From the NCBI GenBank assembly GCA_964618055.1, contig CAZTWR010000001.1, positions 1 to 26,047 of the forward strand: DNA of 26,047 bases. Direction: 5' to 3'. The position numbers and the translations under genes are program-made. Positions 9,564 to 15,377 of the stretch are shown here, piece by piece. Within the stretch, counting starts at the first letter, position 1. Every line of letters starts with the position of its first letter. Source of the stretch: an uncultured Pirellulales bacterium (GTDB taxonomy: Bacteria; Planctomycetota; Phycisphaerae; Sedimentisphaerales; Anaerobacaceae). Under the pieces are notes generated by a model. The model had not been told where the DNA came from. It was given only the letters and a program-made list of their open reading frames with translations, and did not search any database.

Positions 9564-10847
9564 TTAAGACCGGCTTTTACTGCTCTCAACTATGCCTTTT
9601 ACATCCGAGACTGTAGGTATCTCGGGGATGATACTTTTATCTGGAAGACCTTTTATTATCAAAAAAGCAGTGTCCTGTGTGTGTTTGCCGGTGAAGATAC
9701 CTTTGTCAACCAGTTGTTTGGCTTTGACATTTGCCTTGAGGTTGAATCCTTTATTGCCGATGAGAACCATATCCGGCGCATTTTCAAGATATGGGCCGGA
9801 ATAAAGCTGCTCTTTTCTGTATATGTCCCTTATAACCTTTTTGCCGTCTATTTCCAGCGAATGAAAGAGACTCTCGAGTTGAGACAGAGGCTCTTCGGCC
9901 TCAGCCGGCTCGACAGTTCCGCAGGGGAACTTGCCTTTGAGGTTTAGATAAATCCTCGCAGGGTCAAGAACAAATGCTTTTGTACCATAACAGATGTTAT
10001 TCAAGTTAGTATCCTGGTCCTGTTTGAACCGGAGGAATCCATTTTGGATAAGCGGGTAACTGATGTAAACATCTTTCTCCAGCTTTTCAAAGCCGTGGTC
10101 TGAGTGCATAATCAGTAAATCATCATCTGTGCTTCTGTCGATGATTTCACCAACTGCTTGGTCAATTTTTCTGAAATGTTCGAGGAATAAATTGTGGTAC
10201 TTGTGGTTTTTATCCTCGACGGCATCCCATAAAAAGTGCATCAGTCTGTCGGTGCCGGTGAATACGAGCATGAAGGTTTGCCAGTCCTGGGTTTGCCAAA
10301 GATAACGGTATGCTTTAATCCTTGCCTCGAGGGTCTTATCCAAATCTGCTAAAAACAGCTCCATCGAACTATGCGCCTTCTGTGAATTGACATCAAGGCG
10401 ATAATCCAGGTTTTTTAGCTGCGGTATCAGGGACTTTGGATAAACACTTTTTTCAAAATCTATGGAGACAAAGCCCGAGATGAGGACGCCATTGGTTTCG
10501 CGGACAGGATAGGTAGAGGGGACGTTAATTATAACGGACTTTCCTTGCCACTGGTCCCAGAACGGTGGCGCTTTCAAATCGTTGAAGTTTGGGAATCTCA
10601 TCTTATAAGAATCAGGGAACAAATCCGTAAAGCCGAAGATTCCGTGCTGGCCGGGGTTTTTGCCGGTAATCAGTGAAGACCACGCTACGGAAGAGACCTC
10701 CGGGATAGAGGAGTGCATTTTTTTGAATATGCTCTGTGAAATTAACTGGTGGGTGTTGAGCATGACGCCGGTTTCGGCGAAGTTTTTAAGCATGCCGAAA
10801 GGCACGCCATCAAGGCCTATTATTACAGTTTTTGCGTTTTGAGTAAT
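9564..10847 (-). CDS. Alkaline-phosphatase superfamily protein (type I phosphodiesterase / nucleotide pyrophosphatase family), probable ATT start
   Basis: KTVIIGLDGVP (upstream of the track start at 10805), PEVSSVAWSSLITGKNPGQHGIFGF, TDRLMH, HSDHGF, FTGKH. The only start-like codons in frame upstream of IIGLDG are ATT/CTG. Confidence 0.8.
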   Translation of the reverse strand: MTQNAKTVIIGLDGVPFGMLKNFAETGVMLNTHQLISQSIFKKMHSSIPEVSSVAWSSLITGKNPGQHGIFGFTDLFPDSYKMRFPNFNDLKAPPFWDQWQGKSVIINVPSTYPVRETNGVLISGFVSIDFEKSVYPKSLIPQLKNLDYRLDVNSQKAHSSMELFLADLDKTLEARIKAYRYLWQTQDWQTFMLVFTGTDRLMHFLWDAVEDKNHKYHNLFLEHFRKIDQAVGEIIDRSTDDDLLIMHSDHGFEKLEKDVYISYPLIQNGFLRFKQDQDTNLNNICYGTKAFVLDPARIYLNLKGKFPCGTVEPAEAEEPLSQLESLFHSLEIDGKKVIRDIYRKEQLYSGPYLENAPDMVLIGNKGFNLKANVKAKQLVDKGIFTGKHTQDTAFLIIKGLPDKSIIPEIPTVSDVKGIVESSKSRS

Positions 10848-10851
10848 AATC

Positions 10852-12081
10852 TCAGTCCACCACAGTGATTATTCCGCCGGCACATATATTTTCATCCTGG
10901 ACAAGGACAAAACGCCCCAGCTCTTGAACGTCGTTGAAGTCTTTGATGACCACAGGCTTTTTGGTTTTGATAACGACTTCTGCCACTTCAAGATTTTTCA
11001 GTACTTTAGCATTCTGCTCGATAACTTCAAGGGTCGAGGAATTAATCCTTTTGTTAATGCTCTCTATTTTGCAGCTTGTCTGCTGGGTGGCACATCTTAT
11101 GTTCAATTTTTGGTCTTTGACAAAGTCCCTCTTGGTCATCCAGAATATATTCGCAGTAATTTTGTCGGTTAAGATAGGTTCTTTACCCGGCAAACATACT
11201 ATATTACCGCGCTCGAGAAAAACTGAATCGGTAGTTGTAATGCCGACGCATTCGCTAGCAACCGCTTTATCAGTTTTTTCGAGGAATTTCTCTATAGCAC
11301 CAATCCTTGTAACTTGGCCGGTTGGCAGAATCTTTACTTCGAGACCTTTCTCGATAACACCTGACTCAACTCTGCCAACGTTAATCCGCTTGTCTGCAAT
11401 CTTGTACACATCCTGGACAGGGAAAATCAAGGGTTTGTCTTCAGCAGGCAGCCTATTCTGCAAAATATCCATACTCTCCAGAAACGTCGGGCCGGTGTAC
11501 CAGTCCATATTTTCGGATTTTTTTGCAATGTTGTCACCTTTGATTGCGGAGATTGGGATGTAAAAAATGGGTTCGATATTTATAGATTTGAGCCATTCGG
11601 CTACGTCTTTTTTGACAGTGTTGAAATGCTCCTGAGCGAAATCCACCAGGTCCATTTTATTTAAAACGACTATAACCTGATGTAACCCCAACAGCGACAG
11701 CATATACGAATGTCGTTTGGTCTGCTCCCTGACGCCCTCGGCAACATCGACAATTACAACAGCTGTCTCTGCCTGGGAGGCACCGGTAATCATATTCTTG
11801 ACAAATTCCACATGGCCAGGAGCGTCAATTATTACATAACGCCTTTTGTCGGTTTTGAAGAAAACCTGTGTTGTATCAATGGTAATACCTTGCTTGCGTT
11901 CTTCTTCCAAATGGTCCAGCAGGTAGGCGAACTCGGTCTCTCTGCCAGCCTCTGCTGAAGCCTTTTTCACTTCCTCAATTTTGTCCGGGGCAAGCGAGTC
12001 AGTATCATAAAGCAGTCTTCCAATCAAGGTTGATTTCCCATGGTCAACGTGACCTACAATAACAAAACTCAGAACGTCCAT
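10852..12081 (-). CDS. cysN: Sulfate adenylyltransferase subunit 1 (GTPase), without a fused APS kinase domain
   Basis: GHVDHGKSTLIGRL, EERKQGITID, DAPGH, NMITGAS, NKMD, ISAIKGDN, GRFVL; two genes downstream of cysD. Confidence 0.93.
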   Translation of the reverse strand: MDVLSFVIVGHVDHGKSTLIGRLLYDTDSLAPDKIEEVKKASAEAGRETEFAYLLDHLEEERKQGITIDTTQVFFKTDKRRYVIIDAPGHVEFVKNMITGASQAETAVVIVDVAEGVREQTKRHSYMLSLLGLHQVIVVLNKMDLVDFAQEHFNTVKKDVAEWLKSINIEPIFYIPISAIKGDNIAKKSENMDWYTGPTFLESMDILQNRLPAEDKPLIFPVQDVYKIADKRINVGRVESGVIEKGLEVKILPTGQVTRIGAIEKFLEKTDKAVASECVGITTTDSVFLERGNIVCLPGKEPILTDKITANIFWMTKRDFVKDQKLNIRCATQQTSCKIESINKRINSSTLEVIEQNAKVLKNLEVAEVVIKTKKPVVIKDFNDVQELGRFVLVQDENICAGGIITVVD

Positions 12082-12082
12082 C

Positions 12083-12400
12083 TTAATCCTCGCTGAGATA
12101 CCCCAACTCTTTTAGTTTCTTCTTTATTTCCTCCATATCCTTTTCTTCCAAGGGCTTGCTTACAGGTAAAGAAGACAGCGGATGTTTTTTCTGGCCGAAT
12201 TTTATAAAAGACCAGAATCTTTCATGCATATAATAACAGAATATTTTCGCTACCGCTTCAACAGCGCCTACGCCGAGTGAAAGAACAATTTTGCGAGTAA
12301 AGACAAAGACTATCGTAGTGGTAACAATAGCAGCAAGTGACCGATAACTTACCGCCTTTATTATCGAGCGCAGGTGTGCCTCTTTGTTATAGTCAATCAT
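12083..12400 (-). CDS. DUF2061-like small membrane protein with a soluble C-terminal LxxLGY helix
   Basis: EAHLRSIIKAVSYR...YYMHERFW; tail KDMEEIKKKLKELGYLSED; lies 1 nt from each neighbour. Confidence 0.8.
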   Translation of the reverse strand: MIDYNKEAHLRSIIKAVSYRSLAAIVTTTIVFVFTRKIVLSLGVGAVEAVAKIFCYYMHERFWSFIKFGQKKHPLSSLPVSKPLEEKDMEEIKKKLKELGYLSED

Positions 12401-12401
12401 C

Positions 12402-13214
12402 CTACATATACCCCAGCGACCGCAATTTCTGCATCATATAGTCGTCTTCCTTGTCCTGTGCTCGTCCACTTCTCTCGGAGACTTTAGAGGTTTTCAACTC
12501 CTCGACAATCTTGTCTATGGTGTCAGCATCTGAATCGACCGGATTACAGCAGGTTTCACAGCCGATGCTTCTGTATCGTTTTCCATTTTTGGCAAAGTAG
12601 AGCTCGACGACGGGGATGTTTTCTCTTTTGACATATTCCCAGACGTCGATTTCGCGCCAGCCGAGTAATGGATGGACCCGAAGGTGCTCTTCCTCAGCGG
12701 CCTTGGTCTTATACTGGTCCCAGAGTTCCGGCGGCTGGTTCTTATAATCCCATTCAAAATCTTCGTCTCTTGGACTGAAGACCCTTTCTTTAGCGCGAAT
12801 ACCGTGCTCGTCCCTTCTGATTCCAAGATACAGCGCCTTAAAACCGTGTTTGGCGATAGCCTTTCTCAGTGCCACAGTCTTTAGTTCATTGCAGCACTGG
12901 AACTTTCCCTTATCTGGCCCGATGCCCTTACTAAGTGCTTCTTCGTTTTTGGCGACGATAAGATTTAAGCCCCACTCTTTGGTGTATTTTTCTCTGAAGT
13001 TGTAAATTTCCTTAAATTTGTAGGTAGTGTCGAGGTGAACAATCGGAAAGGGTATCTTACCAAAAAAGGCTTTTCTGATGAGCCAAAGCAGGGTCGTGGA
13101 GTCTTTGCCGATTGACCAGAGCATAGCCACATCCCTGAATTCGCTATAGGCTTCCCTGATGATGAAAATACTCTGATTTTCCAACTTATCCAGTTGACTG
13201 AGGCCGGAATTCAT
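12402..13214 (-). CDS. cysD: Sulfate adenylyltransferase subunit 2 retaining a CC...CxxC motif
   Basis: WSIGKDS PP-loop, HLDT, GIRRDE, RAKERVFS, QPPELW, RVHPLL, ERSGRAQD; C107-C108 and C219-x2-C222-C223. Confidence 0.93.
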   Translation of the reverse strand: MNSGLSQLDKLENQSIFIIREAYSEFRDVAMLWSIGKDSTTLLWLIRKAFFGKIPFPIVHLDTTYKFKEIYNFREKYTKEWGLNLIVAKNEEALSKGIGPDKGKFQCCNELKTVALRKAIAKHGFKALYLGIRRDEHGIRAKERVFSPRDEDFEWDYKNQPPELWDQYKTKAAEEEHLRVHPLLGWREIDVWEYVKRENIPVVELYFAKNGKRYRSIGCETCCNPVDSDADTIDKIVEELKTSKVSERSGRAQDKEDDYMMQKLRSLGYM

Positions 13215-13391: not shown

Positions 13392-13495
13392 TATCTATAG
13401 TTGGTGTAAAGTCTTAGCAATTGCTGGTCGATTTGGCTGGATGAAGTGTGTCTTTTCAAATAAAGCCGGTTCAGAGGTATTATTAAGGAGAGAAA

Positions 13496-15022
13496 ATGCA
13501 CAATGCTAAATGCACTTGTTGGAACTGCCCGGCCATCGATTTGGCAGGGAAGGTTGATTTCCGTGCCTGTGGCCAATCTGTAAAACAGTTCGATAAAACC
13601 GCAGATTTGACGGGTGAAACCCATGTTATGGCTGAGTGCAAACGCAGGCCCGAACTCGGCCTTTACGACCCAATGGGTATCAGCTTCGAGGAGTGCCCCC
13701 AATGGCAAGAAACGCCATACGGTTACATACTAAAAGATATGAGGGTGATGATTCTCGGCATCGACGGCTATCTCGGCTGGACACTTGCTCTCTGGCTGGG
13801 CAGTCTGGGCTGTAAGGTCAGCGGGGTAGATAACTACAATCGCCGAAACTGGGTGAAAGAAAGAGGCGCTCATACCATCGTGCCTATCGCGAGAATGAAT
13901 GAAAGACTTCGAGCAGCAAAAGAAATCCTCGGTATCGACATCAATTTCCGGCAGATAGACATCTACACGGAGCGCGAGCGCCTCAAGGAATTTATTGACG
14001 AAGTAAAACCCGAATCAATCGTTCACTATGCGGAAAACCCGTCTCCAGCTTTCAGCATGATTGATGTCGAGCATGCCATCGAAGTGCAAAAAAACAACGT
14101 CCTCGGAACCCTTGCATTGCTGTTTACAATGCGGGACACCGTCCCGGAATCGTCCCTGCTGAAGCTCGGAACGATGGGCGAATATGGAACGCCTTTAACC
14201 GGAAGGCCTCTCTTCGAGGGTATCTTCCCCGCCGAGGCAATACTTCAATGGGACGGCCGCGAATGGAGTCTCGGCGGCGAACTGACACCAAGAGACCCGG
14301 TGAGTTTCTACCACGTCAGCAAAGTCCAGGACACGTTCAACGTATACGAAGCCGGCAAATACTGGTGGCTGAGGTCCTATGACATTATGCAGGGTGTAAT
14401 CTTTGGCGTCCATACCGAGCAGGTGGCGGCAGAGGCTCGGCTTCGCACACGGCTCGATATCGACGAGTGGTTTGGAACAATAATAAACCGTTTCGTTGCC
14501 CAGGCGGTCATCGGCATTCCTTTAACGCTGTACGGACTCGGTAAACAGATAAGAGGTTTTATTGCGCTGCGAGATGCTATGGAATGCATGACAAGACTAA
14601 TCTGTTCACCGCCTGAACCAGGCCAGTATGCTGTTGTCAACCAAGTTTCGGGGATTTACAGTGCAAGACAGTTGGCTTACACGGTTGCAAAGGTCGGCAG
14701 AGAGCATTTTAAACTGCCTGTTCAAATCCAGCGAGTCGAAAACCCAAGGGTCGAAGCCGACGAACATCTATTCGAAGCGCTGTATGAAAAACTTCCGAGG
14801 GAATATGGCTTTGAACCAAAGGTCAGCGTGGAAGAAGAAATCTTCAGGATGTTTGAACTCTTTTTGACTGACGAGGTCAGAAGAAGGATTGAAGAAAGAA
14901 AGCACGTAATAATACCCAAGACCTGGTGGTCGGGCGTCAAAAAGGAAGTGGAAAGATTGGAACTGCTGGACCTTAAGGGAGAGATAGAAGAGGATGAGCG
15001 AGTGTTTAAGATTCACCGATAA
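13496..15022 (+). CDS. sqdB: UDP-sulfoquinovose synthase (SqdB/SQD1/Agl3 family) with an extra 81-aa Cys-rich N-terminal domain
   Basis: Core from M82: MRVMILGIDGYLGW, VDN, HYAENPSPAFSM, LKLGTMGEYGTP, FYHVSKVQD (YxxxK), DIMQGVIFG, NRFVAQAVIGIPLTLYG, NPRVE. Strong SD (AAGGAG) precedes ATG 13496. Confidence 0.9.
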   Translation: MHNAKCTCWNCPAIDLAGKVDFRACGQSVKQFDKTADLTGETHVMAECKRRPELGLYDPMGISFEECPQWQETPYGYILKDMRVMILGIDGYLGWTLALWLGSLGCKVSGVDNYNRRNWVKERGAHTIVPIARMNERLRAAKEILGIDINFRQIDIYTERERLKEFIDEVKPESIVHYAENPSPAFSMIDVEHAIEVQKNNVLGTLALLFTMRDTVPESSLLKLGTMGEYGTPLTGRPLFEGIFPAEAILQWDGREWSLGGELTPRDPVSFYHVSKVQDTFNVYEAGKYWWLRSYDIMQGVIFGVHTEQVAAEARLRTRLDIDEWFGTIINRFVAQAVIGIPLTLYGLGKQIRGFIALRDAMECMTRLICSPPEPGQYAVVNQVSGIYSARQLAYTVAKVGREHFKLPVQIQRVENPRVEADEHLFEALYEKLPREYGFEPKVSVEEEIFRMFELFLTDEVRRRIEERKHVIIPKTWWSGVKKEVERLELLDLKGEIEEDERVFKIHR

Positions 15023-15377
15023 GAACTTCAAGGAGGAAGTTCTCGGCAGCGAATTACCGGTTTTTGTGGACTTCTGGGGCTCATGGTGTCCGCCATGCAA
15101 AATGGTTGAACCGGTAATGGATAAGTTGGCAAAGCACTTCGATGGAAAAATAAAAGTTGGCAAGCTCAATGTCGACCAGAATCCTCAGACCCGCTCAATG
15201 TTTAATATTGGTGGTGCGCCAACCTTTATCCTATTCAAAGACAGCCAGGTTCTTGAGAGGATTGTAGGAGCTCGTTCAAAGAAACAGCTCCTGGAGTTGA
15301 TAGAAACCGCTCTCAAGTCCCAACCTTCGACGGCATCGAAAAGCTCAAAAACGCAAGAGTCAGAGCGGTCAGCGTAA
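14994..15377 (+). CDS. trxA: Thioredoxin
   Basis: VDFWGSWCPPCKM, KVGKLNVDQNP, APTFILFK; overlaps the end of sqdB by 29 nt. Confidence 0.9.
   Translation: MSECLRFTDKNFKEEVLGSELPVFVDFWGSWCPPCKMVEPVMDKLAKHFDGKIKVGKLNVDQNPQTRSMFNIGGAPTFILFKDSQVLERIVGARSKKQLLELIETALKSQPSTASKSSKTQESERSA

Follow-up and report, generated by a model that had tools for sequence, protein, structure and literature searches.

A conserved five-cysteine N-terminal domain and two constant partner genes mark a clade of SqdB-type proteins in bacteria and archaea

We analyzed a 26,047-nucleotide stretch of DNA from an uncultured Pirellulales bacterium (contig CAZTWR010000001.1 of assembly GCA_964618055.1, positions 1 to 26,047 of the forward strand; hereafter the window). 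An open reading frame (ORF) at 13496-15022 on its forward strand, read directly from the sequence and opened by ATG 13496, encodes a 508-residue protein of the UDP-sulfoquinovose synthase type (SqdB). An initial annotation of the window had noted that 81 residues with six cysteines precede the Rossmann fold of this protein. Our results indicate that these residues are a genuine, translated and ancient accessory domain, which appears to define a distinct subfamily of UDP-sulfoquinovose synthases. In our best reading of the gene neighborhoods, the members of this clade would form a three-protein unit with a phosphodiesterase-like metalloenzyme of the alkaline phosphatase (AlkP) type and a dedicated CxxC thioredoxin. 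For the domain itself we tentatively favor a part in bringing sulfite to the synthase.

Translation and extent of the N-terminal domain

The cysteines stand exactly where they had been reported: C6 (codon at 13511), C8 (13517), C11 (13526, followed by proline), C25 (13568), C48 (13637) and C67 (13694, in a C-P-Q-W motif). The Shine-Dalgarno sequence AAGGAG before ATG 13496 and its lack at M82 were likewise borne out, as direct reading found no GGAG-like site 5' of the M82 ATG (13739). That the 81 residues are additional to the characterized enzymes also holds, since alignments to the SQD1 structures (1qrr, 1i24) and to the NCBIfam profile begin at residue 82-83.

A scan with one genome per species detected relatives in 126 species; the best 80 loci of these were examined. 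In all 80, the ORF begins 1-10 codons 5' of the motif H-N-x3-T-C-W-N-C-P and continues into the Rossmann strand. The entire extension is conserved in every homologue, which backs translation from ATG 13496 and a real fusion. It could be argued that M82 is the true start and that the 243 nt upstream are an untranslated leader, open by chance, as M82 is invariant and is the first residue of the Rossmann strand. Against this, the protein sequences of the 81 codons from bacteria and archaea are 52-92% identical and share invariant cysteines, tryptophans, glycines and prolines, no ORF begins farther than 10 codons from the HN motif, and the only Shine-Dalgarno sequence is the upstream one. Because of the conservation of the N-terminal 81 codons, we regard a start at M82 as effectively refuted, its probability being negligible.

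Sequence conservation of the domain

Five cysteines, C8, C11, C25, C48 and C67, persist in all close homologues (111/111) and all loci (80/80), but C6 does so in 71/111 and 30/80. The description as a six-cysteine domain is thus true of this protein, while the family keeps five cysteines and varies at C6. The pattern common to all 80 loci is C-x2-C-P ... C-G-Q ... C-x-R ... C, and 19 positions are invariant in bacteria and archaea (N3, T7, C8, W9, C11, P12, A13, D21, F22, C25, G26, Q27, C48, R50, G55, P59, C67, G76, L79). Among bacterial copies, the mean identity is 70% for the N-domain and 75% for the catalytic core; to archaeal-type copies, it is 55% and 65%, respectively. The conservation of the N-domain nearly equals that of the catalytic core and is far above chance.

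A word-indexed search with residues 1-85 yielded 277 proteins, all of them SqdB fusions of about 500 residues and 68-92% identical in this region, with Omnitrophota, Planctomycetota, Dehalococcoidia and Ratteibacteria as source names. Searching 1.84 billion cluster representatives with a profile of the N-domain, without word index, gave 43 matches at E<=1e-3. Of these, 41 were SqdB fusions, fragments thereof or proteins of about 70-100 residues that keep the five cysteines, and we saw no fusion partner other than SqdB. The two weakest matches (P0163 and P0164, E>1e-4), aligned over 5-6 short stretches, were taken to be spurious repeat proteins.

The domain did not match any described family. 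With residues 1-81, hmmscan found no Pfam-A family at E<=10, including Fe-S and zinc-ribbon families, and none of the NCBIfam models matched; the N-domain profile had no match among all PDB sequences except a chance one to Argonaute (E 1.9). The HMM search proposed in the initial annotation therefore gave no hint of a known family with an unrelated role, and its comparison with DUF2769-type cysteine motifs found no support, DUF2769 being rejected by the empty Pfam-A result. Ferredoxin-type [4Fe-4S] spacing (CxxCxxCxxxCP) and the two CxxC knuckles of a zinc ribbon were also considered and rejected, since a single CxxC is present; the remaining candidate ligands are lone cysteines spaced 14, 23 and 19 residues. 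In full-text literature searches, one of which was too broad to be useful, neither the domain nor the gene cassette turned up. The members are nameless in UniProt and AFDB, and NCBI labels them 'NAD-dependent epimerase/dehydratase family protein'.

Gene neighborhood of fused and non-fused SqdB

To count partner genes, proteins of the window were compared with the 80 loci by tblastn, and only loci with enough flanking sequence were counted. In 67/68 loci, a gene for an AlkP-type phosphodiesterase-like enzyme (PF01663) is no farther than 6 kb from the fused sqdB, and in 63/68 it is directly upstream on the same strand; a thioredoxin gene lies directly downstream in 65/67. Genes for CysD and CysN adjoin the cassette in 10/80 loci.

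As a control, SqdB homologues were sampled in 121 Planctomycetota, 251 Chloroflexota and 251 Thermoproteota genomes. The matches fell into a fused class, aligned from residue 1-2 with at least 66% identity, and a non-fused class, aligned from residue ~78-83 with 32-47% identity. Around 42 non-fused copies from the three phyla we compared about ±7 kb, bearing in mind that related genomes are not independent, and found the phosphodiesterase in 0/42, the thioredoxin in 0/42 and cysD/cysN in 0/42. The fused clade thus differs from the non-fused SqdB of the same phyla both in sequence and in being tied to the AlkP-type and thioredoxin genes, and this contrast is seen in bacteria as well as in archaea.

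The window and its two closest relatives depart from this order: instead of preceding sqdB, their AlkP-type gene closes the divergent cysD-DUF2061-cysN operon (Table 1). After this rearrangement it stayed with the genes of sulfate activation, which hints at the source of its substrate. The cysD/cysN assignment is supported by NCBIfam models (PRK05253, 360 bits; TIGR02034, 356 bits).

Table 1. Features of the window at and around the fused sqdB gene
Feature	Position	Strand	Remarks
AlkP-superfamily phosphodiesterase-like enzyme	9564..10847	-	PF01663, E 2e-31; constant third partner of fused SqdB
cysD (12402-13214), DUF2061 gene (12083-12400), cysN (10852-12081)	10852..13214	-	Divergent from sqdB; sulfate activation to adenosine 5'-phosphosulfate (APS)
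Shine-Dalgarno sequence AAGGAG	13484..13489	+	6 nt 5' of ATG 13496; read from sequence
N-terminal five-cysteine domain, residues 1-81	13496..13738	+	Five-cysteine pattern in 80/80 loci
Loop residues 23-41 with invariant R23-x-C25-G26-Q27	13562..13618	+	Predicted local distance difference test (pLDDT) <50; predicted disordered/mobile
SQD1/SqdB-type core (residues 82-479), C-terminal extension (480-508) and stop	13739..15022	+	
Dedicated thioredoxin (WCPPC)	14994..15377	+	PF00085, E 1e-28; TIGR01068

The CysD of the window contains the sequences Q-C-C-N-E-L-K and S-I-G-C-E-T-C-C, which resemble the CC...CxxC ligands of the [4Fe-4S] cluster in APS reductases. The CysD of E. coli presumably lacks these cysteines; with them, the window protein still scores as CysD in PRK05253.

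The two partner proteins

Both partners look catalytically competent, judging by their conserved residues. The AlkP-type protein has an invariant set of ligands for two metals (D13, D200, H204, D250, H251 and H389, numbered from codon 10847) and an invariant Ser52 as nucleophile at the position of the usual Thr; it has no invariant cysteine. The PF01663 match, the two-metal ligand set and the nucleophile are shared with the branch of NPP and phosphonoacetate hydrolase, and the closest solved structures are PhnA and NPP1, with E~1e-5 and over the motif regions only. None of the NCBIfam models fits the protein, which evidently belongs to an uncharacterized subfamily.

The start of the AlkP-type gene in the window is unusual. 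There is no ATG, GTG or TTG on the reverse strand of 10805-10868 before the metal-ligand motif GLDG, and the first canonical start, GTG 10805, would remove this motif. In relatives the protein starts with M/V-A-K-x-A-K/R-T-V-I-I-G-L-D-G, whose first codon corresponds to ATT 10847 in the window; a CTG is located at 10865. A non-canonical start codon, translational coupling to cysN (stop TGA 10854-10852) and a sequencing error are options.

In the thioredoxin, WCxPC is conserved among relatives. In the window, the first 29 nt of its gene lie within the 3' end of sqdB, and several relatives keep this offset. Such translational coupling of a dedicated thioredoxin, taken together with the C8/C11 pair and the further cysteines of the N-domain, might suggest a redox switch, in which a thioredoxin-controlled disulfide of the N-domain gates SqdB, as in the thioredoxin-regulated enzymes of chloroplasts. 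This explanation leaves unaccounted for the constant AlkP-type partner and the stand-alone copy of the domain that directly follows a phosphodiesterase gene (see below). Moreover, as the carriers are mostly from lineages that we take to be of anoxic sediments, redox switching would be less obviously useful to them. We consider it improbable.

Predicted structure of the N-domain

We predicted the structure of the full-length protein with AlphaFold2 in two runs, of which the second, with 98 diverse sequences including archaeal and stand-alone copies, reached a mean pLDDT of 81.8 and a predicted template modeling score (pTM) of 0.86. Within the N-domain, the mean pLDDT was 90 for residues 1-10, 77 for 11-20, about 43 for 21-40, 78 for 41-50, 89 for 51-60 and 95-96 for 61-80. 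The model has scant regular secondary structure, with a hairpin at residues 70-79 that runs into Rossmann strand 1. By per-residue pLDDT, C8, C11, C48 and C67 lie in confident segments and C25 in a loop predicted to be mobile. In three divergent copies (P0131, P0136, P0125), C25 alone is lost and the other four cysteines are kept. Model and divergent copies indirectly support a '4 + 1' division of the cysteines.

The contexts of the copies lacking C25 are uninformative about selection, as their contigs are too short or, for P0125, the cassette is decayed. In this decayed cassette (L135, 994-2004), the AlkP-type protein has shrunk to its final ~40 residues, read in the same open frame just 5' of the N-domain. 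A Ser takes the place of C25, and the match to the SqdB core ends at core residue ~152.

When Foldseek PDB, VIA-align wide and AFDB clusters were searched with the full-length model, all matches were either to short-chain dehydrogenases/reductases (SDR), from residue 82 on, or to nameless members of the fused family. Among the AFDB clusters was an SqdB-like protein of 682 residues (A0A353PH35) with a different N-terminal extension of ~200 residues. ESM Atlas searches, by features with residues 1-81 and with the stand-alone copy P0150 and by structure with P0150, were uninformative: the neighbors were small, mostly viral, nameless proteins with scores of 0.81-0.90, and the pLDDT of the Atlas model was 0.39.

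The model also bears on whether the domain could be purely structural, that is, a zinc-knuckle-like module that stabilizes or oligomerizes this SqdB clade or docks its partners without any sulfur chemistry, while the thioredoxin and the AlkP-type enzyme act elsewhere in the pathway, for instance in the turnover of nucleotide sugars or by-products. Such a module would fit the scarcity of secondary structure and the large number of invariant cysteines, glycines and prolines, as small metal knots typically show. It would also fit the hairpin of residues 61-80, which is predicted with confidence (pLDDT 95) and runs into Rossmann strand 1, and the distant stand-alone copies in unrelated contexts (beside MCM/PDDEXK genes, in small-gene clusters and in methyltransferase clusters). 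Yet the invariant cysteines number five rather than four, with the fifth in a mobile loop next to the invariant R23, G26 and Q27, and an inert domain is hard to square with a redox-active thioredoxin that co-occurs with the fused class in 65/67 loci and with the non-fused class in 0/42. We think a purely structural domain unlikely, though well worth keeping in view.

The synthase core and its C-terminal extension

By sequence, residues 82-479 constitute a bona fide UDP-sulfoquinovose synthase of the SQD1/SqdB type, predicted to form UDP-sulfoquinovose from UDP-glucose and sulfite. A phmmer search against PDB matched SQD1 (1i24/1qrr) with E 1e-75, and positions 1-383/384 of the NCBIfam model NF041015 align to residues 82-478. 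The score of 393.6 bits is under the equivalog cut-off of 575, which characterizes the core as a divergent subfamily rather than an equivalog. The core has the extended-SDR fold with the N-terminal Rossmann motif GxxGxxG, and T226 (KLGTMGEYG) and Y272-H273-V-S-K276 (SFYHVSK) align with the SQD1 motifs and are invariant in 67 sequences; we take the corresponding catalytic residues of SQD1 to be T145, Y182, H183 and K186.

Plant SQD1, bacterial SqdB and Agl3 of Sulfolobus differ from the protein studied here in being without the 81-residue N-domain and without a C-terminal extension of ~30 residues. The latter (residues 480-508, window 14933-15019), a trait of the fused clade that is absent from SQD1, is predicted to form a helix at 493-507, and its W478-S-G480 junction with the core is conserved. 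Several fused SqdB (L019, L060, L067; P0065, P0087, P0128, 845-871 residues long) carry an intein of the LAGLIDADG type (PF14528), inserted near core residue ~150, at or adjoining the catalytic GTMGEYG region.

Distribution of the domain

More than 15 phyla of bacteria and archaea are represented among the 80 loci. Bacterial carriers belong to Planctomycetota, Omnitrophota, Chloroflexota, Auribacterota, Aminicenantes, Spirochaetaceae, Desulfobacteraceae, Acetothermia, Nitrospinae and Armatimonadota, and archaeal ones to Bathyarchaeia, Thermoplasmata, Promethearchaeota/Helarchaeota, Hadarchaeota, Altiarchaeales and Thermococci. The closest relatives, at 90-91%, come from metagenome-assembled genomes of Pirellulales and Planctomycetota and thus point to Planctomycetota as the most likely origin of the window.

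We found the domain on a single SqdB clade, with no less than 66% identity to the protein of the window, and otherwise just in a few demonstrably stand-alone copies of ~80 residues. One of these (P0135) directly follows an AlkP-type phosphodiesterase gene. Another (P0150) is part of a cluster of glycan, methyltransferase and radical-SAM genes (B12-radical-SAM, glycosyltransferase; L005-L007), 5.7 kb from a non-fused SqdB-like gene; a third (P0152) adjoins UbiA, MCM and PDDEXK genes, and a fourth (P0151) is located amid very small genes. Distant stand-alone five-cysteine proteins outside SqdB contexts are 80-87 residues long (L090, 548-790; L091, 514-777; L005-L007).

A chromosome-level Bathyarchaeota genome (G002) has both a fused SqdB (66%, C1:1663541-1664998) and a non-fused one (46%, C1:587158-588339), the latter ~2 kb from an APS kinase gene (590066-590509). 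Apparent other fusions at non-fused SqdB in high-GC Chloroflexota were rejected as spurious overlapping ORFs.

Sulfur metabolism of the carriers and the supply of sulfite

In vivo, UDP-sulfoquinovose synthases must obtain a substrate, sulfite, that in its free form is toxic and in short supply; in plants, a partner protein seems to be required. Sulfur metabolism was examined in genomes of carriers. Sulfate activation is encoded in each of five large carrier assemblies, of which two have CysD, four Sat and three APS kinase; a sulfite reductase was present in only two. A search with one Pfam model, in genomes some of which are incomplete, gave no CysH-type PAPS_reduct gene for four of the five; among these four are a Planctomycetota relative (SqdB 90% identical) and a Bathyarchaeota genome, both at chromosome level. 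Nor was a CysH-type gene found in the window's own genome, which is 73% complete: its sole gene of the PAPS_reductase family is the cysD of the window, and NIR_SIR was not found there either. Carriers thus combine sulfate-activation genes and a sulfite-needing SqdB with no recognized linking enzyme found, leaving a gap between APS or 3'-phosphoadenosine 5'-phosphosulfate (PAPS) and sulfite.

The reading that we tentatively favor, as plausible though short of probable, is that the domain combines a four-cysteine metal knot with one mobile reactive cysteine and, with the phosphodiesterase and the thioredoxin, delivers sulfite from activated sulfate to SqdB. C8-x2-C11-P, C48 and C67-P would hold a metal (zinc or an iron-sulfur cluster) and keep the N-domain packed onto the Rossmann domain, leaving the chemistry to C25 (R-x-C-G-Q) on its mobile loop. 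APS or PAPS would come from ATP sulfurylase (CysDN in the window, Sat in other carriers); the AlkP-type enzyme would bind the nucleotide and aid transfer of the sulfo group to the C25 thiolate, giving Cys-S-SO3- as in CysH; and the thioredoxin would reduce this intermediate, freeing sulfite beside the UDP-4-keto-glucose-5-ene that SqdB forms as an intermediate. All chemical steps of this relay are our inferences, as are metal binding and the assignment of roles to individual cysteines. In its most specific form, the phosphodiesterase, the five-cysteine domain and the thioredoxin would together be a CysH-independent APS/PAPS-to-sulfite reductase of unrelated folds, with sulfite handed to SqdB via a Cys25 thiosulfonate; this we consider possible, but doubtful.

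The proposed logic is like that of the thioredoxin-dependent CysH, which forms Cys-S-SO3- on a mobile ECGLH tail and, in the APS type, has a [4Fe-4S] cluster: common to both would be activated sulfate, a Cys-Gly on a flexible segment (C25-G26 in the loop with pLDDT <50), a thioredoxin, here encoded by an adjacent gene in 65/67 loci, possibly a four-cysteine metal site, and sulfite as the product. The likeness would be functional, as there is no kinship of sequence or fold between CysH and the N-domain: a PF01507 signal (PAPS_reductase, PP-loop-like) is absent from residues 1-81, which are too few for that fold, and nucleotide binding would need the separate AlkP-type protein. In plants, a complex of SQD1 with ferredoxin-glutamate synthase has been proposed to channel sulfite. 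It shares the idea of a partner needed at low concentrations of free sulfite, whereas its partner and chemistry are different and it has no homology to the cassette.

Several observations argue against sulfite delivery of this kind. AlkP/NPP enzymes normally attack phosphorus and would release sulfate, not a sulfo-thiol, and we know of no precedent for sulfo transfer to cysteine by an AlkP fold. The cysD and cysN genes are adjacent in only a minority of loci (10/80), the absence of CysH comes from one Pfam model and partly incomplete genomes, and cells in sulfidic sediments could import sulfite from their surroundings. The thioredoxin might act in regulation rather than catalysis. Finally, metal binding by the five-cysteine domain is putative, and in the first AlphaFold2 run, with 56 close homologues, the N-domain had a pLDDT of 35-65. 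In spite of these points, we favor a role in sulfur delivery over a purely structural one because of the near-universal pairing with thioredoxin and the AlkP-type enzyme and because CysH was not found.

The sulfur might also come from another donor, by a rhodanese-like relay from thiosulfate or persulfide in which thioredoxin regenerates the cysteine and either sulfite is freed or reduced sulfur is added to yield a thio-sugar. GlpE-type rhodaneses, which as thiosulfate:thioredoxin sulfurtransferases free sulfite using one cysteine and thioredoxin, provide a precedent; the habitats are sulfidic, and 70/80 cassettes lack adjacent cysDN. However, all five carrier genomes examined activate sulfate, nearby cysDN, where present, directly abut the cassette, the catalytic residues of SQD1 are all kept, including the His beside the Tyr, and the domain has no rhodanese-like signal in sequence or fold. 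Such a donor therefore seems very improbable to us.

Conclusions

With a conserved cysteine domain, two partner genes that stay constant over more than 15 phyla of uncultured anaerobes and no CysH found in most of the carriers checked, the question of the sulfite source becomes testable with three small soluble proteins. If the sulfo-relay is true, it would represent a new enzymatic reduction of activated sulfate, dedicated to the synthesis of sulfo-sugars in uncultured anaerobic bacteria and archaea, including Asgard, and the five-cysteine domain would be a new family with a defined function. Surface glycans bearing sulfoquinovose would then be widespread in bacteria and archaea of sediments. 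Should the domain be structural only, it would still be a clean marker of a new SqdB subfamily that is now annotated merely as 'NAD-dependent epimerase/dehydratase'.

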